A stretch of DNA of 54,590 nucleotides, taken from a virus (lineage: Duplodnaviria > Caudoviricetes). The stretch covers positions 1-54,590 of IMG/VR virus record IMGVR_UViG_3300043443_000432; one strand, given 5' to 3'. Under the pieces are notes generated by a model, which was not told the origin of the DNA, did no database searches, and saw only the letters and a list, made by a program, of their open reading frames with translations. The position numbers were made by a program, and so were the translations under genes. This document shows positions 22,273 through 52,525 of the stretch, piece after piece; position 1 is the stretch's first letter, and every line of letters starts with the position of its first letter.

Positions 22273-22715
22273 TTACTCCTGCGATTCCATTTGTGTTGAT
22301 CGTAATCTTCGCGCAAGAAACCGTAGACGCAAAGATCGTCGTCCTTGAAGGCTCGTCGCATCACGCCTTCAAGTTGAAAACCAAGGTGCTCATCGAATCG
22401 ACGAGCCGCAACATTTTTAGCTCTTACAAGACCGGTCACGCGCTGCACCATGTAGTGCTCAAAGGCGAATTTGAACACGCCGCGGAACATTTCCAAAGCG
22501 GCACGGGGCGTTGCCCATTCCGCTCCTGGTTTTGCAGCCGTATGCATGTCAACGTTTGTCTCGGTAAAGTTTGAAAGCACAACCACAAACGCAAAATCGC
22601 CGCTTGAATCAACCGCCGACAAAGCCCGACAAAACCCAACGGGGTGCTCGATGCCGAGTACGTTTTTTGCCCAATCGATTGCTTCTTGCTCACGTTGCGT
22701 TCCGATGTATTTCAT
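22269..22715 (-). CDS. GNAT acetyltransferase-like protein
   Basis: RVTGLVRAKNVAARRFDEHLGFQLEG; lies between the nozzle and ejection genes, as is usual in podoviruses. Confidence 0.85.
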   Translation of the reverse strand: MKYIGTQREQEAIDWAKNVLGIEHPVGFCRALSAVDSSGDFAFVVVLSNFTETNVDMHTAAKPGAEWATPRAALEMFRGVFKFAFEHYMVQRVTGLVRAKNVAARRFDEHLGFQLEGVMRRAFKDDDLCVYGFLREDYDQHKWNRRSK

Positions 22716-22939
22716 GACAACGAGCCCACCATCCGCTCGGCCCATTCGCGCCAGTCGGTGAAGCCGTAAGGATTGGGCAAGTTTCTGCCAATCGTGGTGT
22801 TGTTCAAAAACTGCACGCCCCAGTCCTGCCAACGATTCGGGTCATCCAATCGCCCAAAGGTGCCATAAGGGTCCAGGTCAAGATTGATCTGTGACGCCCA
22901 ATCGAGCAGCTCCATTCCGGTGGGCAGCGTGATGATCAT
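22712..22939 (-). CDS. Small Trp-rich putative structural protein
   Basis: Coupled ORF in the tail cluster. Confidence 0.75.
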   Translation of the reverse strand: MIITLPTGMELLDWASQINLDLDPYGTFGRLDDPNRWQDWGVQFLNNTTIGRNLPNPYGFTDWREWAERMVGSLS

Positions 22940-24765
22940 CCCAGCACCGTCTTGTCCCCGGTCTCGAGATGACCGATGATCTGACCCATCTGGTAGTCGC
23001 CGTACAGCGCGTTGGACTCAAAGCGCAGGCGCAACTCGCGGCGCTGTTCTTTGAGCATGACGATCTGCTCGTAAGGCTGGCTTGCCTGGTCCGGGAATGT
23101 GAAAAACGAGCTGTAGACCTCTGGTGCACGGGCGTTTGCGCGGCCGGTTACCTGGACGGTCATGGGCCCGTTTTGCACGAAATCGGGCTCAATTGCTGAG
23201 ATGCGCAGGTACTCGTTCGTTCCCTGCGCGGTGGGTGAGAGGTCTGCCGTCTCAAAGTACGACTGAATCGGGGCGGCCAGGGTGCCGTCAATTTCATCCA
23301 CGCCCTGCTCGTGCACCCAGGTGCGGTATCCGCTGGCAGAAGGCACAGCGTCGACTAGGATCGGGGCGGCAAACCCGTTGTTGTACCCACCGGCAGAGCG
23401 GCCAGCGGAGGGCAGAGCCGTGTCGTACCAAGTGTTTTCTCGCACGTTGTAGATCACGGCGTGCGTGCACTCTGTGGCGTCACCGCGAGGGTATGCCCAC
23501 CAGATTTCGCCGTAACGCGGGACCTTCCAGGCGAAAACCTTGCTGTGCTGCTGCGGGTTCAAGCCGTCGAGAAAGTAGTTTATGTTCAGCTGGTTTGGCA
23601 CGTCGCGCACCACGCCGTTGAACATAAAGAACCGGTCCACGCCGGCCCAGAAAAACACGCCGTCGTAATCCACGACCGAGTCGGCCGAAAGGATCGAGGT
23701 GTCTGTGGCGATCGTGTCAAACTGAAACACCGTGGCGCCGCCCGTGAAGGTGGCACGAATCACCGCGTCGTAGGCCCAAAAGAGTCCTGCCGGGGCGGAG
23801 CCAGAGCCTGCGCGAAGGGGCATGCCTTTCACGATCTTCTGGCTCCACACGCGGGCGATTCCAGAGCCAGAGCCGGACAGGTCGGTAGGCTCTCCGGCCA
23901 CGGACCAGCCGATGATGCCCGCCGTGCCGTAGTAGAACAAATACGGGTGCAGGGCCACGATGCCGCCCGTTGCGTTTGCACCGGCGGGGAGTTTCACGCT
24001 CCGCAAACGCGCCGTGCCAAGCAGATCGCCGTAGAAAATCTGGCCGCCAACGTCGTTACACAGGCACTGTCCGTTTGGCGCAACGTGCGCAAGGAGGGCG
24101 TTGTAAGAGGTGGAGGAGTCGAAAATCGCCTGGAACATCCATCGATTTGCGCTGGACGATACCAAGGCGTCAGATCCACCGGCCATGTTGGTGGATGTAG
24201 CCGTGATCGTTGTCGTGGTTGCGGCCACCACATACCCATCCGTTCCCGTGCCAGGCGTGACCGCCGTGATGGTGATTACCGTGCCAACGGCCGCAGCCGT
24301 GTAGTCCGGGGTGGATGTGTGCAGGTTAATGTTTGTTGCAACAGCCGTAGCCGTTGTGGCCAAGTCCGTAGTGAAGGACACAGCTCCGGACATGATCTGA
24401 ACGCCGTTTACCGTGATCCCGTCCACGGAGCCTGCTGCGCCGCCTGTGAGCGTCACGGTACCGGTGGCAGAAATGTTAATCGGCGTGCGGTTGGTAACAA
24501 CGCTTGCATTTTTGCTTGCGTCGATCGTGAACCGCTCCAGCGTGCTTGGACCGCCGCTGTGGCAGTACTGCAGCAGCTGCTGGGTAAAGCTCATGAAGCC
24601 GCGGGAAATTTCGGTCAGGTATTTTGCGACAGACCTGTATCCGCCGATCTTACGAGGCAAGCCACGCTGAAAACGGACCCACTGGCCGTCGGTGTAGAAC
24701 TCACCGTCGAACTTGGTGCCGTCGCGCTTAATGCCGGGCTGGGAGCGGAGGATTGCGGTTGGCAT
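22936..24765 (-). CDS. Tail nozzle / stabilisation protein (P22 gp10 / T7 gp12 analog)
   Basis: Beta-rich; GEIWWAYP...VIYNVRENTW; size and position fit. Confidence 0.75.
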   Translation of the reverse strand: MPTAILRSQPGIKRDGTKFDGEFYTDGQWVRFQRGLPRKIGGYRSVAKYLTEISRGFMSFTQQLLQYCHSGGPSTLERFTIDASKNASVVTNRTPINISATGTVTLTGGAAGSVDGITVNGVQIMSGAVSFTTDLATTATAVATNINLHTSTPDYTAAAVGTVITITAVTPGTGTDGYVVAATTTTITATSTNMAGGSDALVSSSANRWMFQAIFDSSTSYNALLAHVAPNGQCLCNDVGGQIFYGDLLGTARLRSVKLPAGANATGGIVALHPYLFYYGTAGIIGWSVAGEPTDLSGSGSGIARVWSQKIVKGMPLRAGSGSAPAGLFWAYDAVIRATFTGGATVFQFDTIATDTSILSADSVVDYDGVFFWAGVDRFFMFNGVVRDVPNQLNINYFLDGLNPQQHSKVFAWKVPRYGEIWWAYPRGDATECTHAVIYNVRENTWYDTALPSAGRSAGGYNNGFAAPILVDAVPSASGYRTWVHEQGVDEIDGTLAAPIQSYFETADLSPTAQGTNEYLRISAIEPDFVQNGPMTVQVTGRANARAPEVYSSFFTFPDQASQPYEQIVMLKEQRRELRLRFESNALYGDYQMGQIIGHLETGDKTVLG

Positions 24766-27650: not shown

Positions 27651-28058
27651 TCAGTCCTTTTTTGCTGTGACGATGTCCTCGCCTTTACGAACGGTCACGC
27701 GGTCGCCTTCGACATCAACGCGCATGGGCTGCTCGGCACGGTCGAGCTTGTCGAGTTTGTCAATCAGGTGTTTTATCACCTCAAACTCCGGCTTTTCCTG
27801 CTTCGGGTTTGCGCCTGCGATGCCGTTGAGCATAGAGATCAGTGCGGTAAGGGCGGCTGACACCAAGCCAATCACCGCGGCAATTTTTGACTCCTCAAGG
27901 GCAAGGCTTGCGCCGACGCCCACCACAACGATAGCTGTGATGTACGCCAGGCCGTGCTTGCCAATTGCTTTTCCGGCAACTTCTTTGGCGGTGCTCTCGG
28001 CCTCGAGGCGATTTAGCTCAGCCTTGGCCTGAGCTTTCAGCATTTGCAGCTCGTCCAT
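27651..28058 (-). CDS. Two-TM membrane protein (holin/antiholin-like)
   Basis: Two hydrophobic helices inside the lysis cluster. Confidence 0.6.
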   Translation of the reverse strand: MDELQMLKAQAKAELNRLEAESTAKEVAGKAIGKHGLAYITAIVVVGVGASLALEESKIAAVIGLVSAALTALISMLNGIAGANPKQEKPEFEVIKHLIDKLDKLDRAEQPMRVDVEGDRVTVRKGEDIVTAKKD

Positions 28059-28103
28059 CAGATTTCCCCGTCAGAAAATTACCATAAGATGGTAAAAAAC
28101 CCC

Positions 28104-28334
28104 TTATTTGTTGGCAGCGATAGCAGCGTTCAGAGGAGCCAGATCCTGGTCCTGCATGAAGTCCTTGGCCACCATGATCTCCAGGTGAGCCACGTTGCGG
28201 GCGACGGTATCCGCCCACTCAGCGTCTTCCATTCCTTCAGGTTTACCGGCGTTCAGCAGGTTCACGCTGTCCATGGCGGCGCTGTAGTGGCGCGCGATCT
28301 CTTCTGCGGTGAGGGTGTCAATGATGTCGGTCAT
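28104..28334 (-). CDS. Putative tail-fibre assembly protein
   Basis: Small acidic ORF directly after the fibre gene. Confidence 0.6.
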   Translation of the reverse strand: MTDIIDTLTAEEIARHYSAAMDSVNLLNAGKPEGMEDAEWADTVARNVAHLEIMVAKDFMQDQDLAPLNAAIAANK

Positions 28335-28335
28335 T

Positions 28336-30378
28336 TCAGTTTCCTTTCAGGGTTGCGATTTCAGCCTTGGCTGCGTCGAGTTCGGTCTTGAGTTCTTTGA
28401 TGGCGGCGACAAGCAGGGGAATGATGCTGTTGTATTGCACTCCCATCATTGCAGGAGACCCATCTTTCTCAGTTGCACCTTCGCCAGGAACTTCAACGGC
28501 CTGTGGCAATACAGCAAGAACGTCTTGAGCAATCAAGCCAACTTGAGGTTTTGCGGTTTCATCGGACTTCCAAGTGTATTCAGCGGCTCGTAATGAGCAA
28601 ACTTTGTTAAGCCCATTCTGAATTTCGCCTGTGATATTTTTCAAGCGTTCGTCAGAGCTGTTGGTCCACGAAGTGCCGTTTTGCGCAAGATACGGACCGT
28701 TTGTCGTTCCTGAGTACGTTTGCAAACGCAACAGGCTGTTGTCCCACCAAATAGCGGCCTTCGTACTGAAGGCGTTCAGCCAAGTGAGCTGCGTGTATGT
28801 TGCACCAGACGCTGCATTGACAAAGTGCCCGGTGTTTGACGCAAACCCCAATAACGGAGTGCCATCCCCATCCGACAGAATGACGTTTCCGTTGGAAGTG
28901 CGAATATCTAGGTTACCTTGGTTGCCGGAGTAAACTCCAATAATGGTGTTCCTAGAGCCTGTTGTTACAGCATAGCCAGAATCTCTACCAATAAAAGTAT
29001 TTTGAAATCCTGTTGTATTGCTATATCCCGCTTGGTATCCAACTATAGTATTTGAATATCCTGTTGTAGTGCTATAAGCAGTCTGATACCCCACAGCGGT
29101 GTTGTTAGCGCCTGTGGTGTTGAATCGAAGCGCCTCACGCCCAACTGCGGTGTTGTAGCCGCCTGTGGTTGTGGAATATAAAGAAACCGCGCCAATACCT
29201 ACGTTAAATACGCCAGTGGTGTTGGAATACAAGGCCGCATAACCAAACGCATCGTTTGTTTGACCAGTCGTGTTGCTATACCCTGCCTGATAACCAACAG
29301 CGGTGTTGGAAGAGGCGGTGGTGTTGGCCGCAAGAGCAGACGTACCAATTGCAACGTTGTAGGAACCGGTAGTGTTGGAGTTCAACGCACCATTAGTGGA
29401 GTTATCGTTGCTACCAACGGCCGTGTTTGCGGTGCCGCTAGAGTTATTACGCAGAACATAAGCACCGATACCGATGTTACCTGCACCAGTAAACGTTCCA
29501 AGGTCTCCAGCGTTAGAACCGATGAGTGTGTTTCGTACTCCGGTAGTTGCAGTGTATCCAGCGCGATAACCAAGCGCAGTCAGTTCAGTGGCGGTGCTTG
29601 CATAAAGCGATTGGTACCCCACAGCAGTGTTGTTGCTTGCTGTGGTGTTTTGAGAAAGTGCGCCCCCACCCAATGCAACGTTGTAATTACCAGTCGTGTT
29701 ATTGCGGCCAGTTGCTTGGCCGTTGTTGAATTCAAGGCCACCAACCCATGTGTTGTAAGCGCCCGTGGTGTTGCTTCGACCGACTTCGTAACCCACTGCC
29801 GTGTTGTAAGAGGCCGTGGTGTTGGAATAGAGGGCAGAATTGCCAAGCGAAGTGTTGTATGCGCCGGTTGTATTTAAGCGCATCGCATTTGCGCCAATAG
29901 CCGTGTTGTAGCCTCCTGTTGTATTGGTAAGCATTGCACGACTTCCCATCGCCGTGTTTTGGGTTGCGGCACCTGTAGAGACAATAAGTGCGTTAAATCC
30001 AATTGCGGTATTGCTTGCCCCGGTCAAAGAACCATCTGCCAAAGCACTCGCACCCACCGCAGTGTTGGTGGCCACACCGCCCGCACCACGGCCTACGGTA
30101 ACTCCATAAACCGAGATCTGAGAGCCGTCAAACGTGAAGTTAGCAGAGCCTGCTAGCGCACCGTTATTGTTGTATTGAACCTGCGTGTTAGACCCGCCAA
30201 TCGTGCCAGAACCTTTCGACGCCAGCGTCTGCACCACGCCGCCGTTGTCCTTGTAGAACAGCTTGCCGTCCGTGATGTTAATCGCCAGCTCCCCGTTGGC
30301 CAGGTTACCTGCGGAGGGCGTTGCCGCGGCGGTGGTGGAGTAGTAGAGCTGGATGGGTGTGTAGCCTGCTTGGGACAT
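28336..30378 (-). CDS. Tail fibre with beta-roll repeats and C-terminal S74 intramolecular chaperone
   Basis: About 16-aa NTAVG...SNTTG repeats; SSDERLKNI autocleavage motif; GLIAQDV; terminal coiled coil. Confidence 0.9.
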   Translation of the reverse strand: MSQAGYTPIQLYYSTTAAATPSAGNLANGELAINITDGKLFYKDNGGVVQTLASKGSGTIGGSNTQVQYNNNGALAGSANFTFDGSQISVYGVTVGRGAGGVATNTAVGASALADGSLTGASNTAIGFNALIVSTGAATQNTAMGSRAMLTNTTGGYNTAIGANAMRLNTTGAYNTSLGNSALYSNTTASYNTAVGYEVGRSNTTGAYNTWVGGLEFNNGQATGRNNTTGNYNVALGGGALSQNTTASNNTAVGYQSLYASTATELTALGYRAGYTATTGVRNTLIGSNAGDLGTFTGAGNIGIGAYVLRNNSSGTANTAVGSNDNSTNGALNSNTTGSYNVAIGTSALAANTTASSNTAVGYQAGYSNTTGQTNDAFGYAALYSNTTGVFNVGIGAVSLYSTTTGGYNTAVGREALRFNTTGANNTAVGYQTAYSTTTGYSNTIVGYQAGYSNTTGFQNTFIGRDSGYAVTTGSRNTIIGVYSGNQGNLDIRTSNGNVILSDGDGTPLLGFASNTGHFVNAASGATYTQLTWLNAFSTKAAIWWDNSLLRLQTYSGTTNGPYLAQNGTSWTNSSDERLKNITGEIQNGLNKVCSLRAAEYTWKSDETAKPQVGLIAQDVLAVLPQAVEVPGEGATEKDGSPAMMGVQYNSIIPLLVAAIKELKTELDAAKAEIATLKGN

Positions 30379-34281: not shown

Positions 34282-34986
34282 TCATCGTTTCGCTGCTTTT
34301 CGACCTTCGGACAAAGCGATCGCGATTGCTTGCTTCGGTTTTGTCACGACCGGACCGTTTTTCCCCGAGTGCAGATCGCCGGACTTGAACTCGCCCATCA
34401 CCTTGCCGACCTTGGCTTGACTGACCTTGCCGCCGGTTTTCATGGCCAGCATCGGCTCACGGGGAGCGACCGGAACCATCTTGCGAGAAGGCGCCTCAAC
34501 CTTGCGGCTCATCATGGAGGCCTCACGGCGCATGGTCGGAGTCATGGCCATTTCGCGCTTGTCCATTGCTTCCATGCGGGGCATCTTAGCCATGCCTCCC
34601 TTGGCCAGCTTCAACGTGGGCAGATCCGGCGCCACAGGCTTGGAGCCCTTGATGCCAGGGTTTTTGTTGCCCTTGATGCCCAAAGAGCTGGTGTCCTTGA
34701 TCATGGTCTGGCCAACGAAGCCAGGCGCCTCGACCTTACCGCCGCGGGCCAGCTTGGTCAGGGGCTCACCCTTGTGCAGAGCCTTCTCGTGCTTGTGCAC
34801 GGCGGCTTTGACCATCGCCTTGTCCTGTTTCATGTCGGCCTTCACGCTGCCGCCCTCAGCATAGCAAGCGCCGCCCTTGGCGTAGCCGGTGACCTTGCCG
34901 CCCATGGCGTATTTCACCGAGCCGTCTTTGCCCTTGGTGCCGAAATCAAACTCTTTGACGTACTTGCAGCCCATTTTGGCCTCCAT
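34282..34986 (-). CDS. Basic K/M-rich protein with six xxGG motifs and a DUF6496-like C-terminus
   Basis: YAMGG, YAKGG, YAEGG, LARGG, LAKGG and MKTGG; KVMGEFKSGDLHSG...KQAIAIALSE. Confidence 0.8.
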   Translation of the reverse strand: MEAKMGCKYVKEFDFGTKGKDGSVKYAMGGKVTGYAKGGACYAEGGSVKADMKQDKAMVKAAVHKHEKALHKGEPLTKLARGGKVEAPGFVGQTMIKDTSSLGIKGNKNPGIKGSKPVAPDLPTLKLAKGGMAKMPRMEAMDKREMAMTPTMRREASMMSRKVEAPSRKMVPVAPREPMLAMKTGGKVSQAKVGKVMGEFKSGDLHSGKNGPVVTKPKQAIAIALSEGRKAAKR

Positions 34987-39916: not shown

Positions 39917-42457
39917 TTAACGTGTGCCGGGGTTGATCCCGGTGCCGGTGCTCACGGCAATTTTTTCACCGGAGGCAATTTCTGCCGCCGCCAAACGCAT
40001 GGCCGTCACGTTATCGGCCGTGTTCATTTCAACACGGGCGTTAATTTCGGCGGCTGTTCGTTGATTTTCTGCAAGCTCTTGCATCTGATCGGCCTGGAAC
40101 TGCTCTGCGCGAGCCTGCTGCGCATCTGCCAGCTTGGACTGGTCAACGGCGAGCTTGGCTCGGTCCATTTGCAGACTTTGCTCCGCCTTCTGATGCTCAA
40201 GTTGCAAACGCGCTTGATCCGTCTGAGCGCGCTGCTGCAGAGCCATCTGCTGCACCTGCGCATTCAGCGCCGCAATCTGCATGCTGTTGTCGGGCGGCAT
40301 CGGCGGCTGAGGCTTGAACTGCTCGGCCAACTTGTCGATTTCAGCCAACTCCTGCGCAAACTGAGCGAGCTGCTGCTCGATGATCTGCTGCACGCGAACA
40401 ATCAGCCCGGCTTGAGCGTTTGCATCGTCCGTGATCAAGCTCTCTCGCTCAGCGCGCTGCACAGCTTGGTGCGCTTGCGTGAGGTAAAAGTTCAGCAAGT
40501 GGTCCCGCAGGTGCTGCGCCATCGGGTACAGGTACGTTTTCACGATCGCCGGATTCATGCCAAACATCGGCGACTTCAAAAACGCCATGTGAGTTTTTAT
40601 GTGGCCAATATGGTCCTGCTTTGGCAGCACATAAACCGGACGACCCATCGAGGCGGCCACGTTTTCACTCACCGGGTCCACGTTGTCCTGGCCAGGCTGA
40701 GGCTGCAGCACATCTTCCGGGCTGAGCTTCAGGTTGCGCAGGAACATCTCCTCGACCTTGCGCAGGTCGTACATCTGCGGCATGACCGCGGCGCGAGCCT
40801 GAACGGCCTGGACCTGGGCAAAGCGCTGCGCCTCGCTAAAAATGGCCGGGTCGGACACGGGCACAACGTCCATCGGTCCGTCGAAGTCCTCGGGCTTTAC
40901 ATCCAGGCCGTTTTCCATGGCCTCGATGTCCTCTTCCGTCAAGTAAGCGCTGTTGATGCGGTGCAGGATGGTAAACACCCGTGCCATGCTGTTGTGCAGG
41001 CGCGCATGAATCGAGCTGAAAACCACCATGCCCTGCTCGATGAGGGCCAAGGTCGTGCCAACCGGCGCGTTGGGGTTTTGGTCCGACAGCTTCTCAAACG
41101 AGGTCTGCACCACGCCTTTGCCGGCGTCGACCAGGAAGCCCAGCAGCTGGAACAGCGTGGGGCTCGGGCCGTTGAACGGCAGGGCCATGGCCAGCTTGCG
41201 AATGTCGTCGACCAGCGCGCCGCCCTCCATCTCCACCACTTCGGTCGGCTGCACGTTGATCGTCTGGCCGCCAGGGCCGCCTTTGAGCTTCAGCAGCGTC
41301 GGGATGTTCTGGATGTGAGCTGAGTCCATCAGCGCACGCAGGGCGCCAGTGGCCGCGCCGGAGAGGCCGCCGATCATGTGCGTCAAGCCAATCGGGTATG
41401 CGCCGCGCCAGGGCACAAACGGGAACTCGACAATCCAGTCCAGCTCCTTGCGGCGTTTGTCCTCGGGCTCCCAGTTGCGGTACAGCGAAAGCGCCTTGCG
41501 CGTGGACTTGTCGATGCTGATGATGTACGGCTCCATGCCGTCACCAAAGTCCAGGTGGGTGTAAATCTCGAAGATGGTCCGCAGGCCGTCCTCGTTATAG
41601 CTGGTGTCCTCTCGACCCTCGATCTTGTCGTTGGCAATGGTGGACTTGCTGAACTCGACCTGGTCGGGCGAGCCAACGTCAACCTCAGCGTACATGCCCG
41701 CCTTCATGCGGCGGTTGAACTCGGCCTTGGTGACGTACTGCACGTGCGTCTTTCGCTCGGCAGAGTAGAAGTTCGTGGCCGCAAACGGCAGGTAGATGTC
41801 GTCGATTGCGATGAACTCAGCCGTTGGACGATTCCACTGCGGCGACCACATCATCTTCAGGTACTGGCCACCGCCAAGAGGCAGCTGAGTTGACAGCTGC
41901 TCGAGCTCGCCGCGCAACTCGGGCATTTGCTGCGTGGTCTGCCAATTCATAAACTCGGCTTTGCGGCGAGCCTTGTCCAGCTTCTCGGGCTCAGCCTTGC
42001 CCATAATCTTGGACTTCACCGGGCCGGAGGGCGGGAAAACCTCCTTCATGAAGCGGGCGCTGAAGTCAACGCAGGCCTCAACCAGCATCGGGTGCACGAC
42101 CTTGTTGGCGCCGGAGAACTGCGCGCCCCCTGGAGCGTCGTCGCCCAGGCCGGTACGGCGCAAACCTTCTTCGTACAACTTGTCGCGTTTGGCGCGGGCG
42201 TCTTTGTCGCGCTCGATCTTGTCGATCAAGTCAACAACTGCCTCGCTCAACATGCTGCGATCGACCTCGTCAACGATGTTGGCGAAGTGGGCCTTCTTGT
42301 CGGCCACGTCCTGCTCGTTTTTCAATCGAACAACGGCGCCGCCGTCATCCGTATCCTCGACCTCCATGTCGTCTTCGGGCAGAGTGACGGTTTCTCCGCG
42401 CTGCTCATCCTCGCCGGGGTTTTGATCTTCGCCTTGGTTTAGGAGTTCGTCAGCCAT
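39917..42457 (-). CDS. Portal protein
   Basis: 846 aa; VVHPMLVEACVDF, NAPVGTTLALIEQG; Q-rich C-terminal barrel (P22-like). Confidence 0.88.
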   Translation of the reverse strand: MADELLNQGEDQNPGEDEQRGETVTLPEDDMEVEDTDDGGAVVRLKNEQDVADKKAHFANIVDEVDRSMLSEAVVDLIDKIERDKDARAKRDKLYEEGLRRTGLGDDAPGGAQFSGANKVVHPMLVEACVDFSARFMKEVFPPSGPVKSKIMGKAEPEKLDKARRKAEFMNWQTTQQMPELRGELEQLSTQLPLGGGQYLKMMWSPQWNRPTAEFIAIDDIYLPFAATNFYSAERKTHVQYVTKAEFNRRMKAGMYAEVDVGSPDQVEFSKSTIANDKIEGREDTSYNEDGLRTIFEIYTHLDFGDGMEPYIISIDKSTRKALSLYRNWEPEDKRRKELDWIVEFPFVPWRGAYPIGLTHMIGGLSGAATGALRALMDSAHIQNIPTLLKLKGGPGGQTINVQPTEVVEMEGGALVDDIRKLAMALPFNGPSPTLFQLLGFLVDAGKGVVQTSFEKLSDQNPNAPVGTTLALIEQGMVVFSSIHARLHNSMARVFTILHRINSAYLTEEDIEAMENGLDVKPEDFDGPMDVVPVSDPAIFSEAQRFAQVQAVQARAAVMPQMYDLRKVEEMFLRNLKLSPEDVLQPQPGQDNVDPVSENVAASMGRPVYVLPKQDHIGHIKTHMAFLKSPMFGMNPAIVKTYLYPMAQHLRDHLLNFYLTQAHQAVQRAERESLITDDANAQAGLIVRVQQIIEQQLAQFAQELAEIDKLAEQFKPQPPMPPDNSMQIAALNAQVQQMALQQRAQTDQARLQLEHQKAEQSLQMDRAKLAVDQSKLADAQQARAEQFQADQMQELAENQRTAAEINARVEMNTADNVTAMRLAAAEIASGEKIAVSTGTGINPGTR

Positions 42458-42462
42458 TGTGT

Positions 42463-45400
42463 TCAGCCTGCGTTCATGGCGTGGAGCTGGTCCACGATGG
42501 AGTCGATTCTAGCCGGGTCAAAGTCATCTGTGGGGAAATTCGCACCGGACACCAAACCGCCGGCTGCGTAGTTCACCGTTCGACCAGGGTTCATGAAGCG
42601 ACGGTATGCATCCTGAGCCTGGTATGTGAGCGGCACCTGACCTTTTGGGAAATCAGACGACGTGAGCTTGCCAGGCGGCAGGTCCCGCGGATCAAGACGC
42701 GTTGTGCGCTCGACCGTGCTGGCGTTCCACATGGCCGCGGCCAACGGGTCGTTTAGAACCTTTTGCTGAAACACGGGGTCTTTTGCAAGGTCGATGTTTT
42801 GGTTGAACTGGAAGCTCTGCAGGTCTGCCATGCGCTCGCTCAAAGGCGTGTTGGCTCTTGCATCGTAAGCGCCTTGGTAGCCGTACTTTTCTTGCAGGTA
42901 GGGAATGGTCGAGCCGATGTTTTGATTGAACTCGCGCATGAATCCAGGGGATCCAGGATATGCATCTTTGCCGGGCTGCTTCACGTGGTACAGCTCGTGG
43001 CCAAGCGTTTGAGCAGCCTGGGCTGGGGTGAAGTCACCAGAGTTCACCAGCATCACCGTGTCCTTGGTGCCGGGGTAATACCGGTTCGGAACGTAAGCGT
43101 TCGCCTTGTCCTCGCCCATGTTGATCGGAGGCTGGTTGCTGGCCATGATCTGCACGTCGGGACGGTACGTTGCCCAGGCCGGGTTCATGTAACCGCTCTC
43201 CGCTGCGTTGATGAACCGCTGAACATAGTTGTCCTTCCCGATCGTCTCGAACACGGGCAGGTTTTCGTATCGCGCCCGCATGCTGCCTTCAGGCGCTGCG
43301 TTGGCAAAACGGCCAACTTGATCGGGGCTGGCTACGCTGAACGTTCCGGGAATTCCTGAATATGGCGCAGGACCCGTGGCGCCCTTCTGGCTTCCAAACG
43401 GAGCGGCCAGGATTCCGCCTTCCTCTTCCACCTCTGTTTTCGAGGGACCAAATGCCATCGAGGCCTGTTGCTGCAAATTCGGAATGTCGTACTTGCTCGC
43501 AAGGCTAGACAGCAAAGTCTTGCCGATGTTTGATCCCTGTATTCCGCCCGTCAAAGCGGATCTGGCAACGTTTCCGCCCATCATGGCGGCCGGCACAGCT
43601 GCGCCAACGGCGCCTTTGACAGCGTTGGCGGCTCCGCCCGTCAAGCCGAGCGACTCAGATGCAATACCGCCAAGCTGCGATCCGCCGAATCCGGAGATCC
43701 CGCCGAGCGCTCCCTGCAGCGCATCTCCGCCGCTGGATGTGGATCCGCCCATGCCCTGCAAAGCAGCGCCGGTCAGACCGCCAAGGCTGGTACCGTATCC
43801 GCCAAGCGCTCCGCCTATTGCGCCAGGCAACACGCCAGCACCGCTTACCGCGCCCTGCGCCGCGCCGGTCAGGGCACCGCCAAGCACTTGAGAGCCGGTA
43901 GACCCAAGGCCGAGGTTCATAGCTTCGTTGGCCGCTCCTCCAACCGCCGTGCCCAGGCCGCCGCCGATCGCGCCTCCCAGGGCGCCTTTGAGCGCGTTGC
44001 CGCCTGATGCGGCGGAGCTAAGACCTCCGATGACCGCGCCGCCAAGAGCGCTGGCTGCAGCGCCTGATGCGCCAAGGGCAGCGCCAATTGCGGTGCCAAC
44101 GCCGGGGGCAACAATACTCAAAGCGATCGGCGCGATAGCCTTAATCAATCTGCCTGCGCCGCCTTTGAACTCGGTTAAGCCGGTGGTCGGGTTGACCGTT
44201 CCGCCTCCACCCATGTTGGTCAGGAGCCTTACCGACTCGGGCGAGAGGTGAGCCAACATCGTATCGCCACCGCGGCCGGCGGCGGCAACGGCGTTGACAG
44301 CGCCACCCTTGGCGTATTTTTGACCCTGCATTCTGTCGAGCAGTTTGTAAAGCAAAACAAGCAGCGACATAACGATCTGAGGATCGTACTGCTCAGGCAA
44401 ATCGCCTGGCTGGGCATAGCCCTCCTCGATGGCTTTGGCGCGGACCTCTGGGTAGCTGGACGGGTTTTGAACAACCCGCTCGAGCTCGTGGACCATCGAC
44501 TCGATCACCTCCGGCGTTACGCCAGGAGCGTTTGCCAGTCGAGCCTCGGCAACGTCAACGCCTCGGGCAATCTGAGGATCTGAGCCAATGCTCTCACTGC
44601 GCAGAAGATCGAGCAGATCTTTTGAATTCTTTGGAGCCCGCGCCACGGGACCACCGTCGGCGTACTTCTGGACCAAGCCGCCAAGCGCGTATGCGGGAAC
44701 GTTGCCCGCAAAGCCGCCGTCGGAAAACTTGTAAGCAGAGGTCGGGTCCTGCTTGGCATCGCTGTTGTACATGTTCGCTTGGTTCATGTTCGACTGGTTC
44801 ATGACCACGCCTCCTTCTGCGTATTTGTTAACCAGGCCGCCTAAAGAAAAGTCGCCCGGGTTTTGAGATTGCATTTTCAAAAACTCTTCATTCGTCAAGA
44901 AGCGTTGACCCGTGGTGCGCAGACCCTCTTCGCCAAGATCAACCAGGTTGGTGTTTCCAAGATCGCTAACGCGACCCCAGTTGCCCGAGCGCACAAAGTC
45001 TTGCACGAACGGCAGCAGGTGTGCGTCCGGTTCGTCCTTGTACCCAGCGCTCTTTACGCGCAAGCGCTGGCCGGGATCCTTCTTGCCGGAGCCTTTGATC
45101 TGGACGATTTCGGGCTCGAAAGGGCCGAGTTCAGGAACGTAGTAATTGCGATCTGGATCAAAACGCCAACGGAAGTTCGGATCAAGAATATTTCGTCTCT
45201 TTAAATCTTCGTAAACATCCGGGGGGAGCTCACTCTCGCGAAGCAAGCCTTCTGCGTTTTTACCAGGCTTGACCTCAATCGTCACATGCGGCTGGCCATT
45301 CTCATCGCGCAGGCTGTAAATTCGGCTGCGTCCCTCTGAAACGTCCGGGCAGTACCCGCCAACGCAGTGGCCCATGGTCTCGCCTTCGTACTTGAGGGCG

Positions 45401-46788
45401 TCTTCGAGGGCTTGATTGTTGATGGTTTTATGTAAATGTTTTACAGCTTGTTCTTCGGATTTAAGACCAGTGGTGATGTATTTACCGGATTCTTTGTCAA
45501 ATATTGCAAGCGTTTCCGAGCTTGGAGTTGGGCGTCGAATCTCGTAACGATCGGGGGCGGACCAACCGCTAGGCATCTCTTGATTTTTGAGCTCCACCCA
45601 CTTGTACCCCTGGTCCGGGTACTCCTTCACAACCTGCGTGGCTGGGTTCATAGCACGAGCCATGTCGGCCTCGGCTTTTTGCGCCGCACGCCACTCGTTG
45701 ATCTTTGCCACGCGCTCAACGGCCTGGGGAACGGTCACCTTGTCGAGGTCGGAGTACTTCCAGCTCAGGTGCGCTGGCAAACCGGAGTTGGGGTTGACAG
45801 CGTTGCGAAGCTCGTCAACGAGGTGCGGGAAGCCGAGCGCGCCACCGGAATCACTGTAAGCGCCATACGTCATTGTTTCTGGTGGAACTTTAAGAAGCCA
45901 TGGGTTTTCAGCTTCAATACCTTGTGTTGTAAGACGATTTTTTGCAGGAAGATTGTGCAGCGCATAATCTGCCGCAGCCTCCCAGCGCTTGGCCTCTTCG
46001 GACTGACCAAAACCTTTAGCGGGAAAGCCAGCAGACTCTCGGCGAAGGGCCATTGTGTCGCCAAGGTAAGTATTTAAAGGCGCAACTTCTGAGTGCGTGA
46101 CGCCCTGCTCAGCCAACGCACGCAGAGGGTCTTCTGGGGTACCCATCTCGTTGCGCATATATTTGGCCAGTTTGGTTTCAAGCCATCGGTTCAAAGCCGA
46201 ATTCTGGTTATGCATGTCCAGAAAATATTTTGTTCCCTGAACTTTGTCAGCCGAAAACATATCCGGGTTATTGACAATGTTGCGCATTTCCTCGAATTGC
46301 CGAGCGGGAAGCTCGTTAAGACGCATCGGCTCAATTGCTCGCTCAACGCTTCCAGCCAGCCAGTTACCCCCCTTCGGCTTCACCACATGCGCTCCAGACT
46401 GCCCGGCCGCCAGCGCAAAGTCTCGAGCGGCTCGGCTGACCGCGGAGGGGAGGCCTGCAATCGCACGCAGAGGAGAGCCAGGACCGGTGTAAAAACCGCC
46501 GCCAAGCTGGCCCGCCGTTGTAAACGCCCGCCCGGCCGGAGTCTCGCTGACCGATCGCATCGGCAGGCGCTTTTCCACGTCCTCGCTGGTGGGAAGCACA
46601 GTCTGCTCGGACAGGCCGGGCAGCATGCGAATCAGCGACTCGATGTCGCCAGGCGCTCCCAGCACGCCGGATACCGCGCCGCGGGCCAGGGCAACAGGCA
46701 CGTCAGCCGCTGCACGGCGATCATTCAGCTCGGGGCGGCGGCGACCGGCAGAGCGGTAGCCAATGTATGCGCTCAGATCATCGGCCAC
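42463..46788 (-). CDS. Large multidomain (polyvalent-type) protein: PcfJ-like domain, xxGG linker, ejection-module paralog and HExxH domain
   Basis: EGETMGHCVGGY...IYSLRD..GQPHVTIEV; seven xxGG motifs; a block homologous to 20395..22272; LGHELYH. Confidence 0.8.
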   Translation of the reverse strand: MADDLSAYIGYRSAGRRRPELNDRRAAADVPVALARGAVSGVLGAPGDIESLIRMLPGLSEQTVLPTSEDVEKRLPMRSVSETPAGRAFTTAGQLGGGFYTGPGSPLRAIAGLPSAVSRAARDFALAAGQSGAHVVKPKGGNWLAGSVERAIEPMRLNELPARQFEEMRNIVNNPDMFSADKVQGTKYFLDMHNQNSALNRWLETKLAKYMRNEMGTPEDPLRALAEQGVTHSEVAPLNTYLGDTMALRRESAGFPAKGFGQSEEAKRWEAAADYALHNLPAKNRLTTQGIEAENPWLLKVPPETMTYGAYSDSGGALGFPHLVDELRNAVNPNSGLPAHLSWKYSDLDKVTVPQAVERVAKINEWRAAQKAEADMARAMNPATQVVKEYPDQGYKWVELKNQEMPSGWSAPDRYEIRRPTPSSETLAIFDKESGKYITTGLKSEEQAVKHLHKTINNQALEDALKYEGETMGHCVGGYCPDVSEGRSRIYSLRDENGQPHVTIEVKPGKNAEGLLRESELPPDVYEDLKRRNILDPNFRWRFDPDRNYYVPELGPFEPEIVQIKGSGKKDPGQRLRVKSAGYKDEPDAHLLPFVQDFVRSGNWGRVSDLGNTNLVDLGEEGLRTTGQRFLTNEEFLKMQSQNPGDFSLGGLVNKYAEGGVVMNQSNMNQANMYNSDAKQDPTSAYKFSDGGFAGNVPAYALGGLVQKYADGGPVARAPKNSKDLLDLLRSESIGSDPQIARGVDVAEARLANAPGVTPEVIESMVHELERVVQNPSSYPEVRAKAIEEGYAQPGDLPEQYDPQIVMSLLVLLYKLLDRMQGQKYAKGGAVNAVAAAGRGGDTMLAHLSPESVRLLTNMGGGGTVNPTTGLTEFKGGAGRLIKAIAPIALSIVAPGVGTAIGAALGASGAAASALGGAVIGGLSSAASGGNALKGALGGAIGGGLGTAVGGAANEAMNLGLGSTGSQVLGGALTGAAQGAVSGAGVLPGAIGGALGGYGTSLGGLTGAALQGMGGSTSSGGDALQGALGGISGFGGSQLGGIASESLGLTGGAANAVKGAVGAAVPAAMMGGNVARSALTGGIQGSNIGKTLLSSLASKYDIPNLQQQASMAFGPSKTEVEEEGGILAAPFGSQKGATGPAPYSGIPGTFSVASPDQVGRFANAAPEGSMRARYENLPVFETIGKDNYVQRFINAAESGYMNPAWATYRPDVQIMASNQPPINMGEDKANAYVPNRYYPGTKDTVMLVNSGDFTPAQAAQTLGHELYHVKQPGKDAYPGSPGFMREFNQNIGSTIPYLQEKYGYQGAYDARANTPLSERMADLQSFQFNQNIDLAKDPVFQQKVLNDPLAAAMWNASTVERTTRLDPRDLPPGKLTSSDFPKGQVPLTYQAQDAYRRFMNPGRTVNYAAGGLVSGANFPTDDFDPARIDSIVDQLHAMNAG

Positions 46789-47593
46789 GGTTGCACTCCT
46801 TGATGTAGTTGAGGGGGCCTTGAACTACGCCGCCTTGTTTAAATTTTTTGGACTTCAGGAACTCCAAAGCCGGCCCCTCTAGGCGGCGGAACAGCTCAAC
46901 GTCGGTCACATCGGGATCTGGAGCCAGTTGCTTTCTCCCGAGCTCAAGCTCATGACGGCCAAGTCCTTTGCCAGCTTGGTACCGCATCATCAGCAACGGC
47001 GCCGCCTCTTCAAGCAGGATGCTGATATCGTCGTCGCCTTCCAGGTAGGAACGCATGATCGGGTCGTCCAGAAGGCCACGCAGCGAACCGGAAGGTCGAG
47101 CGGCAAATTGAAGCTCCTGGCGAGCCTTACTGAACGTTTTGGGGTCCAGGACATTGACTGGATCCCGCGTGGCAAAAAAGTTGTAAGCACTTTGGCGCAG
47201 GCCGCTTTGTCGGTTGGCCGGAGTGGCAATCAGCGTTCGCACATCGCGGCCCGCGGTCGGCCCCCACTCGGTCGTATAGAACTCCAGGTCGGGTCGGCTT
47301 GGATTGACAGAAAACGCGCCACCTGCGCCACCCGGGTGCGTGTGGAAGTCAACGATGGCCGGAGCGCCTGGTGCTCGACGAGCAGCACTGATGTCAAATC
47401 GATTTGGCGTGACGGCGGACTCTTTGCCGCGGGTAATGGCGGATGCGCCGCCTTCGTCAGCCAGTCCGATGACCGAGTGCTCGCGACCAGTCTGCGCAGT
47501 CTGGCGCAGCGCCTCACGAATCACATCAGCTTGCTGAGGAGCCTCGCGAGCTAACAGAGCGCGAAGTTTTGCGAGAGCGGATAAGCCTGGCAT
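46778..47593 (-). CDS. JAB/MPN-like metalloprotease with C-terminal FKQGG motif
   Basis: GREHS...DFHTHPGG...PSRPD, matching E...HxH...SxxD. Confidence 0.65.
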   Translation of the reverse strand: MPGLSALAKLRALLAREAPQQADVIREALRQTAQTGREHSVIGLADEGGASAITRGKESAVTPNRFDISAARRAPGAPAIVDFHTHPGGAGGAFSVNPSRPDLEFYTTEWGPTAGRDVRTLIATPANRQSGLRQSAYNFFATRDPVNVLDPKTFSKARQELQFAARPSGSLRGLLDDPIMRSYLEGDDDISILLEEAAPLLMMRYQAGKGLGRHELELGRKQLAPDPDVTDVELFRRLEGPALEFLKSKKFKQGGVVQGPLNYIKECNRGR

Positions 47594-47597
47594 AGCC

Positions 47598-47873
47598 TCA
47601 CCACTTCACTTTGTTCGCCCAGTACGCCGCGCTCGACGGGCCCTTGGCGATATTCGACGCATGCCGCGCCTTAAACGAGGCCCGCTTGTCCTTCGTGGCC
47701 TGCGACTCACCTGGCTTGGGCTTGCCAGCCGTCTTGGCTCCCTGCTCGCCGAATCGGATCACCTTCTCGGTGCCGTCATAGCAGGCTTTGACGATGTGGG
47801 ACTTCTTCGGATGGTCCGGCGTGCGCTTCGGTTGATTGCAAGCCATCTCGGATTTCTTGGCGGTCTTTGTCAT
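47598..47873 (-). CDS. Small basic phage protein
   Basis: KVIRFG...RASFKARH...SAAYWA motif. Confidence 0.8.
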   Translation of the reverse strand: MTKTAKKSEMACNQPKRTPDHPKKSHIVKACYDGTEKVIRFGEQGAKTAGKPKPGESQATKDKRASFKARHASNIAKGPSSAAYWANKVKW

Positions 47874-50363: not shown

Positions 50364-50842
50364 TCGTTGGGACCTTTCGCTTTGGACATCAGGGCTTGCA
50401 TTTGAGCGAGCTCAGCATCGCTCAGGTTTTTGAAGTCGACACTGGCCACGGTAATCGCGCCGCCGTCCTTGCCGGTGTGCTCCACGTGCTGCGTCTCGCG
50501 CCAGCCTAGCTGCGTGGCGCCCCAGTACCGCATCATGCCGGAGTCGCCAGCCAAAACCTTCTGAAAAATGCTTTTGGTCACCTGGGCATTTGCCTTGGCC
50601 TTGCCCCTGACCAACTCGTCTCGAAAATGCTCGCGCAAGGTGTCCAGGCTAATTCCATCACGAATCAACGCGCAAATGTGGTCCTGAGAAAGACCGTAAC
50701 CCGACAACGCCTCGACCTGACGCCGCTCTTGTTCGGTCGGCACAAACGCCGGACGACCAGCGCCAGACCGCGCTCCACCATGCGATTTAGGGACCCCGTG
50801 GGGGTTAGTGGGTTTTTCAAGTCTCGGCTTTTTGGTCGCCAT
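50360..50842 (-). CDS. terS: Terminase small subunit
   Basis: GGARSGAGRP, an HTH, GWRETQHVEHTGKDGGAI; lies upstream of TerL. Confidence 0.8.
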   Translation of the reverse strand: MATKKPRLEKPTNPHGVPKSHGGARSGAGRPAFVPTEQERRQVEALSGYGLSQDHICALIRDGISLDTLREHFRDELVRGKAKANAQVTKSIFQKVLAGDSGMMRYWGATQLGWRETQHVEHTGKDGGAITVASVDFKNLSDAELAQMQALMSKAKGPNE

Positions 50843-52118
50843 TTTTCACCTCAGCAAAAGTTTGTCCGGTCTCAGCCAAAGTGGCCTGTTTCCCGGTGAA
50901 CTGCTCCCAGCGCGTCACGATGACGTCGCAGTATTTTGGATCCAACTCCATCAACCGTGCAACCCGTCCGTTTTTCTCGGCCGCGATCACGGTGGTTCCA
51001 GACCCCCCAAAGCTGTCGAGCACCAGGTCACCGCCTTTGGTGTTGTTGAGCATCTGGTACTCGAACAACGCAACGGGCTTCATGGTCGGGTGCTCGCCGT
51101 TTCTGGACGGCTTGTCGAATTCCAGGATTGTCGTCTGTTTGCGGTCTGCTGCCCAGAGGTGGCCGGCGCCTTCTTTCCATCCGTAGAGGCATGGCTCGTG
51201 CTTCCAGTGGTAGTCCTGGCGTCCCATGACCATCGACGACTTCATCCAGATGAGGCACTGACGCACGGTCCAGCCTGCGTCTTTTGCTGCACCGCGGAAG
51301 TTGTAGCCCTCAGAGTCTGCGTGCCAAATGTAGAAAACTGCTCCGGGTTTCATAACCGAATCTGCTGCAGTGTAAGCATCGCGCAAAAACTGCCTGAATT
51401 GCTCGTCCCCCATTTCGTCGTTCTTAATTGTGAGGGATTCTTTTGTTTTGCCCTCATAAGCCACGTTGTACGGGGGGTCGGTCAGCCACATATCCACAAG
51501 CTGTCCTTCGCACAATTTGGCAAGGTCGTCCATGCTGGTTGAGTCCCCGCAAAGCAGCCTATGCTTGCCCATGACCCAGATGTCGCCTGGTTTTGTGACG
51601 GGATCCGGCGGTACCGGTGGAGCCTCGTCGGGGTCGGTCAGTCCGTCGGTAAGCTCCTCGGGCATGAGGGCGTCGATTTCGTCCTGGGTGAAGCCGGTAA
51701 GCTCCATGTCGAAGCCTTGCTCGAGCAGGTCTTTGAACTCGAGGGCGAGCATTTCGTTGTCCCAGCCGGCATTGAGGGCGAGTTTGTTGTCGGCGAGGAC
51801 GTATGCGCGTTTTTTGGCGTCGGACCAGCCTCGGGCTACCATGACCGGCACCTGGGTCATTTTGAGGCGCTGTGCGGCCATTGTGCGGCCGTGTCCGGCG
51901 ATTATTCCGCCCTCCTCGTCCACCAAGATTGGCGTAGTCCAACCCCACTCCTTGATCGAGGCAACCAGCTGTGCGATTTGCTCGTCGGAATGGGTGCGAC
52001 TGTTGCGTGCGTAAGGGATCAGTTTTTCGATCGGCCACTGCTCGATTTTGTCAGCCGGATTTCCGGTGAGTTTTTCGGCGGTGATTTCTGTGTTAATTTC
52101 AGCGGGCTGTTTTTTCAT
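50817..52118 (-). CDS. ParB-like domain fused to a class beta DNA amino-methyltransferase
   Basis: PYARNSRTHS...GHGR...ADNKL, then DPPY (motif IV) before LDSFGGSG (motif I), and HPTMKP. Likely start is ATG 52118. Confidence 0.92.
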   Translation of the reverse strand: MKKQPAEINTEITAEKLTGNPADKIEQWPIEKLIPYARNSRTHSDEQIAQLVASIKEWGWTTPILVDEEGGIIAGHGRTMAAQRLKMTQVPVMVARGWSDAKKRAYVLADNKLALNAGWDNEMLALEFKDLLEQGFDMELTGFTQDEIDALMPEELTDGLTDPDEAPPVPPDPVTKPGDIWVMGKHRLLCGDSTSMDDLAKLCEGQLVDMWLTDPPYNVAYEGKTKESLTIKNDEMGDEQFRQFLRDAYTAADSVMKPGAVFYIWHADSEGYNFRGAAKDAGWTVRQCLIWMKSSMVMGRQDYHWKHEPCLYGWKEGAGHLWAADRKQTTILEFDKPSRNGEHPTMKPVALFEYQMLNNTKGGDLVLDSFGGSGTTVIAAEKNGRVARLMELDPKYCDVIVTRWEQFTGKQATLAETGQTFAEVKNGDQKAET

Positions 52119-52177
52119 GCGTGCTCCGGTTTTTGAGGGGGTTGTAATTGAGTTGTGAATTATGCAACAGTTGTGCT

Positions 52178-52525
52178 TGGCACAGGATGGCACAGGTGGA
52201 ACAGGATAAAAGCAGACATTTTCACCGTATTCTTTCTTGCGCGTGTGTGTGCGTGTGTGCATGTGAATATATGCGTTTTATCCTGTGCCATCCTGTGCCA
52301 AAGTTAAAAAATATAATGAAATCAAAGGGTTATGAGTTTTTTTGATCCTGTGCCAAAACGATTTATCCTGTGCCGGCACAAGATGCATCCTGTGCCAAAC
52401 GTGAAAATCAGAAAGGTTCACCATCCGATTCCCAATCGTGACGCAGCCGAACGCCGGTGTAAAGGTTCAATCTTGTGCCAGAACCGTCCGTGGCACAGGA
52501 TTCTTCGCCTCCTGATCCTGTGCCA
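52178..52525. repeat. Iteron cluster (ATCCTGTGCCA, 12 copies in both orientations); putative replication origin
   Basis: Forward copies at 52280, 52290, 52345, 52365, 52387, 52470 and 52515. Reverse copies at 52178, 52188, 52197, 52374 and 52491. Some copies carry 1-2 mismatches; spacers are AT-rich. Confidence 0.8.

Follow-up and report, generated by a model that had tools for sequence, protein, structure and literature searches.

A polyvalent-type phage protein beside the portal gene carries an ejection-type module, a zincin-like domain and a recurring junction motif

Gene content of the terminase-portal region

The window analyzed here is the whole of IMG/VR virus record IMGVR_UViG_3300043443_000432 (Duplodnaviria; Caudoviricetes), 54,590 bases from a freshwater phage and rated 100% complete. 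Nearly all of its large genes are on the minus strand. In order, these encode a primase, a ParB-methyltransferase, the small and large terminases (TerS and TerL), two open reading frames (ORFs) of 91 and 271 amino acids (aa; ORF91 and ORF271), the 1441-aa protein that is the subject of this report (P0001) and the portal. The portal gene is followed by those for a capsid-like protein, tail fibres, a GNAT acetyltransferase, the 625-aa ejection-type protein P0002 and three more large proteins, for which we found no family matches. P0001 is a polyvalent-type protein of at least five modules. It includes a PcfJ-containing core, a module homologous to the N-terminal part of P0002 and a zincin-like domain, and a short motif lies at every module border wherever domains can be placed.

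The P0001 gene starts with GTG, seven bases after AAGGAG, and overlaps the end of ORF271 by 11 nt. It ends 5 nt before the portal gene. The initial annotation, which was made from the sequence without database searches, had placed it between terminase and portal. P0001 does adjoin the portal gene, but ORF271 (46778-47593) and the 91-aa ORF separate it from the large terminase gene. The features discussed below, all on the minus strand, are as follows.

42463 to 46788, minus strand: P0001, 1441-aa polyvalent protein, one open frame, stop codon included
44869 to 46788, minus strand: PcfJ-containing core, residues 1-640, from homologue comparison; H474, C475, C480, H501 and E505 nearly invariant
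46399 to 46788, minus strand: most conserved core segment, residues 1-130, ~80% identity to relatives
44650 to 44850, minus strand: array of five [FY][AS]xGG motifs in the linker after the core, residues 647-713, starting at 647, 656, 688, 700 and 709
43693 to 44580, minus strand: block homologous to the N-terminal part of P0002, residues 737-1032, from BLASTP
44323 to 44580, minus strand: predicted four-helix domain of the ejection-type module, residues 737-822; residues 1-86 of the AlphaFold2 (AF2) cassette model, predicted local distance difference test score (pLDDT) 80-96
44158 to 44277, minus strand: conserved GRGGDTMLAH ... NPTTGLTEFKGG signature, residues 838-877, low pLDDT in the monomer model
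44023 to 44148, minus strand: hydrophobic glycine-zipper segment read from the sequence, residues 881-922, candidate membrane segment; helix at model residues 145-168
43489 to 44076, minus strand: Gly/Ala/Ser-rich region of the sequence, residues 905-1100, 60% G+A+S
42586 to 43383, minus strand: zincin-like HExxH domain, residues 1136-1401, AF2 pLDDT 83-97; H1264, E1265 and H1268, with E1318 as candidate third ligand
42466 to 42570, minus strand: terminal YAAGG (residues 1407-1411, 42556-42570) and conserved C-terminal tail, residues 1407-1441
46778 to 47593, minus strand: ORF271, predicted JAB/MPN+ (JAMM) metalloprotease module, overlapping the P0001 start; fused to the core in other phages
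20395 to 22272, minus strand: P0002, 625-aa canonical ejection-type protein; N-module at residues 14-331 (21280-22233)
34282 to 34986, minus strand: P0368, Lys-rich protein of 234 aa, encoded downstream of the capsid gene; five motif copies within residues 1-130

P0001 is a genuine single gene

An orthologue in a separate protein cluster, P0003, has the same architecture as P0001 and is 84% identical over 100% of the length. We also compared contigs from four runs, belonging to four other studies, with positions 42300-47700; uncovered stretches carry no weight in this comparison. In one run (X5), a single 7761-nt contig gives unbroken cover of 42300-45108, which spans the portal start, the tail, the zincin, the Gly-rich region, the ejection module, the linker and the end of the core. 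Shorter contigs from a second run (X4) bridge positions 44580 and 44869. Given the shared architecture of P0003, the contigs from other studies and the GTG start behind AAGGAG, we conclude that P0001 is a genuine gene and not a chimera. The 1441-aa frame described in the initial annotation is thus a single open frame, and the assembly chimera that it had named as a possible source of error was not found.

The core recurs with variable partner modules

With the whole protein as query, 7999 candidates were scored, of which 482 were homologues at E <= 1e-3. Among the 120 that were listed, residues 131-660 are common to 118 and residues 1-130 to 99. Identity across residues 1-130 is 78-82% in the 24 best matches after the orthologue P0003. 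Family members range from ~800 to 2100 aa, and both their add-ons and the order of their modules vary. A Pfam scan of nine proteins (seven family members, the standalone protein P0068 and ORF271) detected DUF6973, ART-PolyVal, LPD23, ASCH and DUF4214; six of the nine proteins had one or more of these domains, located on either side of the core. The matches of P0001 itself are to PcfJ only, and the hallmark domains ART-PolyVal and LPD23 are found in its homologues.

The PcfJ match (PF14284) is at residues 464-509 (45262-45399), where the initial annotation had placed a PcfJ-like domain (near 45270-45400). It scores 28.4 bits against a cut-off of 25; it is above the gathering threshold and spans only profile positions 76-123 of 147. 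Within this region, residues 473-506 (45271-45372, minus strand) carry the nearly invariant pattern GHCVGGYC ... SLRD ... PHVTIEV, which resembles a Cys/His catalytic pair. We speculate that H474-C475...C480...H501 could be a thiol-peptidase site in every family member. When the core profile, the cassette profile (see below), ORF271, P0001 and P0002 were compared with the sequences of solved structures, nothing significant was found, and a literature search for PcfJ-like phage proteins gave nothing related.

We found 66 distinct IMG/VR loci that reach from the terminase gene end to the portal gene start; in each, the interval between TerL and portal holds the core, the JAB module (represented here by ORF271) or both. 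The 51 terminase-portal intervals retrieved with the core as query are 2.1-7.6 kb long. In phage DSL-LC04 an 825-aa "PcfJ-like protein" is encoded between the large terminase and the portal. With a core of ~640 aa that recurs in 118 of the 120 listed homologues beside variable extra modules, P0001 is a polyvalent-type protein, as the initial annotation had supposed.

The ejection-type block is an old paralogue of P0002

BLASTP aligns P0001 residues 737-1032 with P0002 residues 14-331 at 165 of 321 identical positions (51%, E 4e-74). The homology to the 625-aa protein that the initial annotation had reported is therefore borne out, over a block somewhat longer than the ~270 aa it gave. Residues 737-900 (~165 residues), with the helical domain, GRGGDTMLAH and NPTTGLTEFKGG, are not Gly/Ala low complexity. 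As sole query, the first ~165 residues of the block matched 2087 cluster representatives at E <= 1e-3, and 396 at 1e-10, from 1.84 billion. Both the pairwise alignment and this search thus place the homology beyond the Gly/Ala-rich stretches. In the best 150 representatives the module is nearly always at residues ~13-190 of proteins of 550-650 aa, and its signature in general form is GDTxLAH...NPxTGLxEF.

The P0002 gene is downstream of tail genes, as are those of podovirus ejection proteins, and its homologue in DSL-LC04 lies between genes annotated "stabilization protein" and "DNA transfer protein." The P0001 copy lies between terminase and portal and so does not occupy the position of an ejection-protein gene. 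The C-terminal domain of P0002 (residues 557-621, 20410-20604), with the sequence IPARLSDGEYV, is common to 113 of 152 module-bearing proteins and matches Caulobacter phage proteins annotated as tape measure (61.5% over 65 residues). A match of P0002 residues 25-76 to a bromodomain-like entry (E 0.2) is not trusted; in Protein Atlas, P0002 hit only unnamed viral clusters. A GNAT acetyltransferase gene (PHROG 4470; 22269-22832, minus strand) overlaps the P0002 start by 4 nt, within the presumed ejection-protein operon.

We considered whether the block in P0001 arose by recent duplication of the 5' portion of the P0002 gene within this genome, or by chimeric assembly. In a tree of 46 modules (11 zincin-linked and 35 canonical, picked from ~135), the P0001 module and that of P0153, a protein of another phage (100/99), are sister to P0154 plus the P0002 of this window (99/97), a position that would suit a duplication. 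DNA identity between the copies, however, is only 67% across 329 nt, and no exact match exceeds 11 nt. The P0001 module is also nearer to that of P0153 (64% identity) than to that of P0002 (49-51%), and the architecture recurs in P0003 and in the contig from another study. We regard recent duplication or a chimera as highly improbable and reject both on the DNA divergence, the X5 contig and P0003. The low DNA identity and short exact matches show that the paralogy is old.

The module has essentially two partners

The distribution of the module bears on how it is used. Among the 152 module-bearing proteins, the P0002-type C-terminal domain that marks the canonical form is present in 113 and a zincin in 6. 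The canonical domain is missing from 34 of 147 representatives; one of these is the zincin protein P0153, most of the others are shorter than 500 aa, and seven end in a GGLA-type tail. Nine long module-bearing members were scanned, and no Pfam domain was found in any of the nine. The module therefore has essentially two partners, not many, and the idea of a carrier for many enzymes is not supported.

In the 46-module tree, the zincin-linked modules other than those of P0001 and P0153 form a separate clade (99/97). An approximately unbiased (AU) test rejects a single zincin-linked clade (lnL difference 38.8, p 0.014), and a quick tree of 151 rows agrees. Identities are discordant as well. The P0001 zincin is 62% identical to that of P0153, 59% to that of P0068 and 60% to that of P0004; for the module, the value for P0153 is that given above, and those for P0068 and P0004 are 37% and 43%. 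The trees and these identities indicate at least one ancient exchange of the N-module between the canonical and the zincin-linked proteins.

The initial annotation had proposed a reusable carrier that delivers enzymes into the host, in the manner of polymorphic toxins. One part of this idea is supported, in that the N-module behaves as a recombining unit. Another part is not: with only two C-terminal types in 152 proteins, a polymorphic-toxin-like carrier of many C-terminal enzymes finds no support.

A module-zincin gene was inserted in frame between core and tail

Proteins of 708-837 aa that consist of the module, a Gly-rich region and the zincin occur on their own (P0153, P0068, P0301-303 and P0305). 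The same cassette is N-terminal in P0004-8 and P0010-11, with the module at residues 18-290, the zincin at 449-729 and the core from ~720. In one locus (L003), the cassette ORF starts 8 nt before the end of a JAB ORF, close behind the terminase gene. In a more distant phage (L052), a 1624-aa ORF with a Gly-rich region, a zincin and GYAAGG follows a homologue of window ORF 22936-24765 and is therefore in the ejection-protein locus. The module and zincin together are a self-contained gene that fused to a polyvalent core.

In P0001, residues ~706-1411 are this ejection module plus zincin gene, inserted in frame between the core and the C-terminal tail (residues 1407-1441). The tail is also present in cassette-less family members, where it normally ends the core protein. 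The cassette-less protein P0013 reads ...YKFADGGFAGSVPGYAAGGVVSGANF-tail, and P0001 reads ...YKFSDGGFAGNVPAYALGGLV-cassette-NYAAGGLVSGANF-tail. One contig from a further run (X3) joins 44713 to 42544, without the whole cassette. From the borders in P0013 and P0001 and from this join, the motif flanks the insertion at both sides. The terminal YAAGG reported in the initial annotation is the C-terminal one of these copies (42556-42570). In run X5, 15 nt are inserted behind 44794, in the motif linker. The region is a hot spot for gaining and losing modules within one habitat type.

The AF2 model of the cassette (38 sequences, 705 residues) has a mean pLDDT of 70.6. In order, it predicts a confident four-helix domain (residues 737-822), a low-confidence stretch with KYAKGG and the signature, a glycine-zipper helix, loose Gly-rich helices, a confident domain at 1136-1401 and a terminal helix. 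Foldseek searches of the PDB and BFVD with this model gave no match at E <= 1e-3. The neighbours from a wide VIA search were only helix bundles of a generic kind (MazG-like, Z 6.7) and, matching the Gly-rich helices, membrane subunits of the TIM22/23 type (Z 5.4-6.0); both results are within the stated noise of the tool.

A zincin-like domain of no assigned family

The HExxH domain proposed in the initial annotation is present as a conserved zincin-like domain with HELYH at residues 1264-1268 (42985-42999). All 14 aligned sequences have an invariant H1264, E1265, H1268 and E1318, the last of these a candidate third ligand. The domain was folded only within the 705-residue cassette model, and its best structural neighbours are all zincin or HExxH proteins: 8s5f (Z 6.0, root-mean-square deviation (rmsd) 5.2, 164 aligned), the catalytic domain of anthrax lethal factor (Z ~5), PPEP-1/Zmp1 (Z 4.2-4.6) and Wss1 (Z 4.2). 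In Protein Atlas, the zincin part hit LPD23 clusters at 0.77-0.78, below lead level. Residues 1136-1401 are probably a zincin-like metallopeptidase domain of no assigned family.

A motif marks the module borders

The motif has the consensus G-[YF]-A-x-G-G-x-V and was counted with the strict search pattern [FYW][AS]xGG. It occurs 224 times in 118 family proteins, against 12.6 expected from shuffling, and its density per 1000 residues is 0.14 within the core versus 4.16 outside. P0001 has 7 motifs against 0.29 expected, and none of 2000 shuffles reached 7. The five GG motifs noted ahead of the block in the initial annotation are among these. Of 25 large ORFs scanned in the window, only P0001, ORF271, P0002 and P0368 carry the motif; the other 21 do not.

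Family members with placeable domains show the arrangement. P0027 has the core, motifs at 770 and 779, an ART domain (819-955), a motif at 962 and, further on, a motif at 1130 before the tail. In P0072 the order is core, motif at 709, DUF6973, motif at 860, ART, motifs at 1319 and 1345, DUF4214 and a motif at 1570, and in P0028 a motif at 252 separates an N-terminal JAB module from the core. All six core-JAB fusions inspected have the motif both between the two modules and behind the JAB, and four also have it ahead of the core. Standalone JAB, cassette and short ejection-type proteins end 10-30 residues past a motif GG. The last module before the portal gene, whichever it is, ends in the motif followed by a (Y)DPxx[IV]DxI helix, and in 66 of 103 motif-bearing family proteins the last motif is 30-39 residues from the C-terminus. 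Two core-JAB fusions in IMG/VR (L031 and L035) have the C-terminal unit of motif and YDPxxVDxI helix twice in tandem.

P0368 may be an internal head protein. No Pfam family was found for it; it has a small conserved C-terminal piece with a weak match to PHROG 2423. A literature search with the motif strings gave nothing relevant. We also considered the motif copies as a recombination signal by DNA microhomology, but only 10-23 of 36 nt are identical, and this is unsupported.

ORF271 is a predicted JAMM-type protease and a candidate motif reader

In four family proteins, a homologue of ORF271 forms the N-terminal 258 residues and is fused to the core. E38, D82, H84, H86, P87, P98, S99 and D102 are invariant in 24 of 24 aligned sequences. 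Its AF2 model (pLDDT 88.8) has an extra helical C-terminal half, residues 145-248. The top fold neighbour is BubCD (9ea4, Z 8.5, rmsd 3.3, 128 aligned), followed by an Rpn11 homologue (6fno, Z 6.7) and by CSN5, BRCC36, JAMM1 and AMSH (Z 5-6). Of 998 chains, 42 score Z >= 5, and nearly all of those listed are MPN domains; the top Foldseek match is BRCC36 (E 2.8e-4). Profile libraries gave no Pfam match at E <= 0.01 and no PHROG match below E 0.05. Based on the invariant E...HxH...S..D residues and the MPN fold neighbours, ORF271 is predicted to be an unannotated JAMM-type metalloprotease module.

JAMM/MPN+ enzymes cut after a C-terminal Gly-Gly, which makes ORF271 a candidate reader of the motif. 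Under this explanation, P0001 would be a polyprotein in which the G-[YF]-A-x-G-G copies are cleavage sites, and ORF271 would cut after GG to give separate core, module plus zincin, and tail, much as deubiquitinase-like enzymes act on ubiquitin-like precursors. The invariant JAMM residues and the JAB/MPN fold matches fit such a role. So does gene position, in that the JAB is in the terminase-portal interval in 42 of 42 JAB-query loci with a portal match, either as its own ORF or joined to the core on one side or the other. The motif at each module border, and standalone modules that end shortly past GG like precursor tails, would also be expected.

Other observations point the opposite way. The JAB occurs in only 12 of 51 distinct complete core-query intervals. 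The complete DSL-LC04 genome bears motifs and has no JAB match in a search that found its positive control, the JAB of this window; three motifs lie in the first 60 residues of the DSL-LC04 protein, which is implausible for cleavage sites. In the relatives from runs X4 and X5, the JAB ORF region 46834-47589 (754 nt) is replaced by ~394 other letters with the flanks kept, and the X5 contig still carries the cassette-bearing P0001 region. This distribution disfavours the JAB as a general reader of the motif, and we consider the polyprotein explanation improbable. A complex prediction for ORF271 with P0001 residues 640-740 scored 0.00, without controls, and is evidence neither way. ORF271 could equally be an injected enzyme directed against host ubiquitin-like defence systems.

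A broader version would make G-[YF]-A-x-G-G-x-V a general junction code, with polyvalent and ejection modules made as polyproteins and cut after GG. The cutter would be the JAB where one is present and elsewhere perhaps the Cys475/His501 pair of the PcfJ core, if it works as a thiol peptidase. If it were true, the motif would allow free shuffling of modules and would govern their release in the capsid or host. This, too, seems doubtful to us.

Proposed role of P0001 and of the motif

The reading of the motif that we prefer, tentatively, is that alone or with the (Y)DPxx[IV]DxI helix it is a signal for head incorporation or portal docking of capsid-internal proteins, in analogy with T4 packaging (see below). 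Its place at module borders would then simply be a relic of modules that were once packaged as separate proteins, each ending in the motif. In the window, the motif is restricted to four plausible internal virion proteins, and in other genomes it is kept where both JAB and zincin are missing. Whichever module comes last before the portal, it always ends in motif and tail, the tail is sometimes duplicated, and the distance to the C-terminus is alike in many proteins, as described above. On the other side, the motif regions have low pLDDT in monomer models. A packaging signal is also compatible with cleavage after targeting, and the motif may serve as cleavage site instead, or as both.

Overall, we think it probable that P0001, a genuine single-gene polyvalent protein, is packaged in the head and injected. 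The core, tail and motifs would bring it into the capsid beside the portal, and at infection it would exit together with the DNA. The glycine-zipper module might then insert in the cell envelope or join the ejection channel, taking the zincin and core along, after which the zincin could trim the polyprotein or attack host proteins.

Several points weigh against this proposal. Packaging and injection are read from gene position and family, and the membrane role of residues 881-922 is a suggestion from their sequence. The zincin matches no Pfam family (polyvalent models included) and no PHROG peptidase family, and its fold matches are weak (Z <= 6, none by Foldseek at E <= 1e-3). Compared with solved ejection proteins, P0001 and P0002 have no PDB sequence match at E <= 0.01.

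The family is nevertheless useful for experiments. It gives a statistically strong short motif that is open to mutation or transplanting, with two candidate processing enzymes beside it (the JAB protease and the zincin), and among its natural variants the modules occur as separate genes, as fusions in one order or the other, or not at all. Polyvalent proteins are regarded as the first weapons of a phage to reach the cell interior. Recruitment of a putatively membrane-entering ejection module to such a protein would tie envelope-opening machinery to the enzymes that come in behind the DNA.

Other features of the window

Two further observations concern other parts of the genome. A ParB-like nuclease fused to a DNA methyltransferase is encoded at 50817-52262 (minus strand), beside the small terminase (PHROG 498, E 2e-179). 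GC content is 0.507 at 28000-30000, over the gene for a 680-aa tail fibre (28336-30378), versus ~0.59 elsewhere; the drop suggests an exchanged host-recognition module at this gene.

Comparison with known systems

Polyvalent proteins are described as very large and multi-module, with zincin peptidases as the commonest module, by Iyer et al. (2017, PMC5512222), who propose autoproteolysis or an effector role for the peptidases. P0001 resembles the proteins portrayed there in being multi-module, in lying among virion packaging genes and in having relatives with ART-PolyVal and LPD23. It differs in that the main text of that paper contains neither "PcfJ" nor "glycine," and its passages on these proteins do not describe an ejection-protein paralogue as a module, a junction motif or a classical (non-RadC) JAB.

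For podoviruses, passages of Swanson et al. (2022, PMC8954989) present the ejection proteins gp14/15/16 of T7 and gp7/16/20 of P22 as having hydrophobic or transmembrane segments and as encoded after the tail genes. The same passages describe them as mosaic, with a lysozyme that moves between gp16 and gp15 homologues, and as diverging to 7-20% identity. The position of P0002 after tail genes and the mosaicism are similar, and the hydrophobic glycine-zipper stretch of the module is a candidate counterpart of such segments. Unlike these proteins, with which we detected no sequence similarity, P0001 carries its copy in the head module, and its enzyme is a predicted HExxH zincin and not a cell-wall hydrolase.

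ORF271 shares the E...HxH...S..D residues and the predicted fold of JAMM/MPN+ enzymes such as Citrobacter BubCD, Rpn11, BRCC36, AMSH and archaeal JAMM1. Unlike in those systems, no ubiquitin-like domain, E1 or E2 was seen near ORF271, and the protein has the extra helical half.

In T4, the internal proteins carry their capsid-targeting sequence at the N-terminus, and the prohead protease cleaves it off. The motif would be similar as a short peptide signal on head-packed, injected proteins, as proposed here. It differs in being repeated and in lying at the C-terminus or internally; among the genes of the window, none was recognised as encoding a prohead protease.

Polymorphic toxins likewise combine a conserved N-terminal delivery part with a C-terminal enzyme. 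The module described here differs from them in its small number of C-terminal types and in that delivery would be by virion ejection, not by secretion. An immunity gene, which no search was aimed at, was not seen either. Beside all of these systems, the most useful new points are the junction motif and the unannotated, predicted JAB module.

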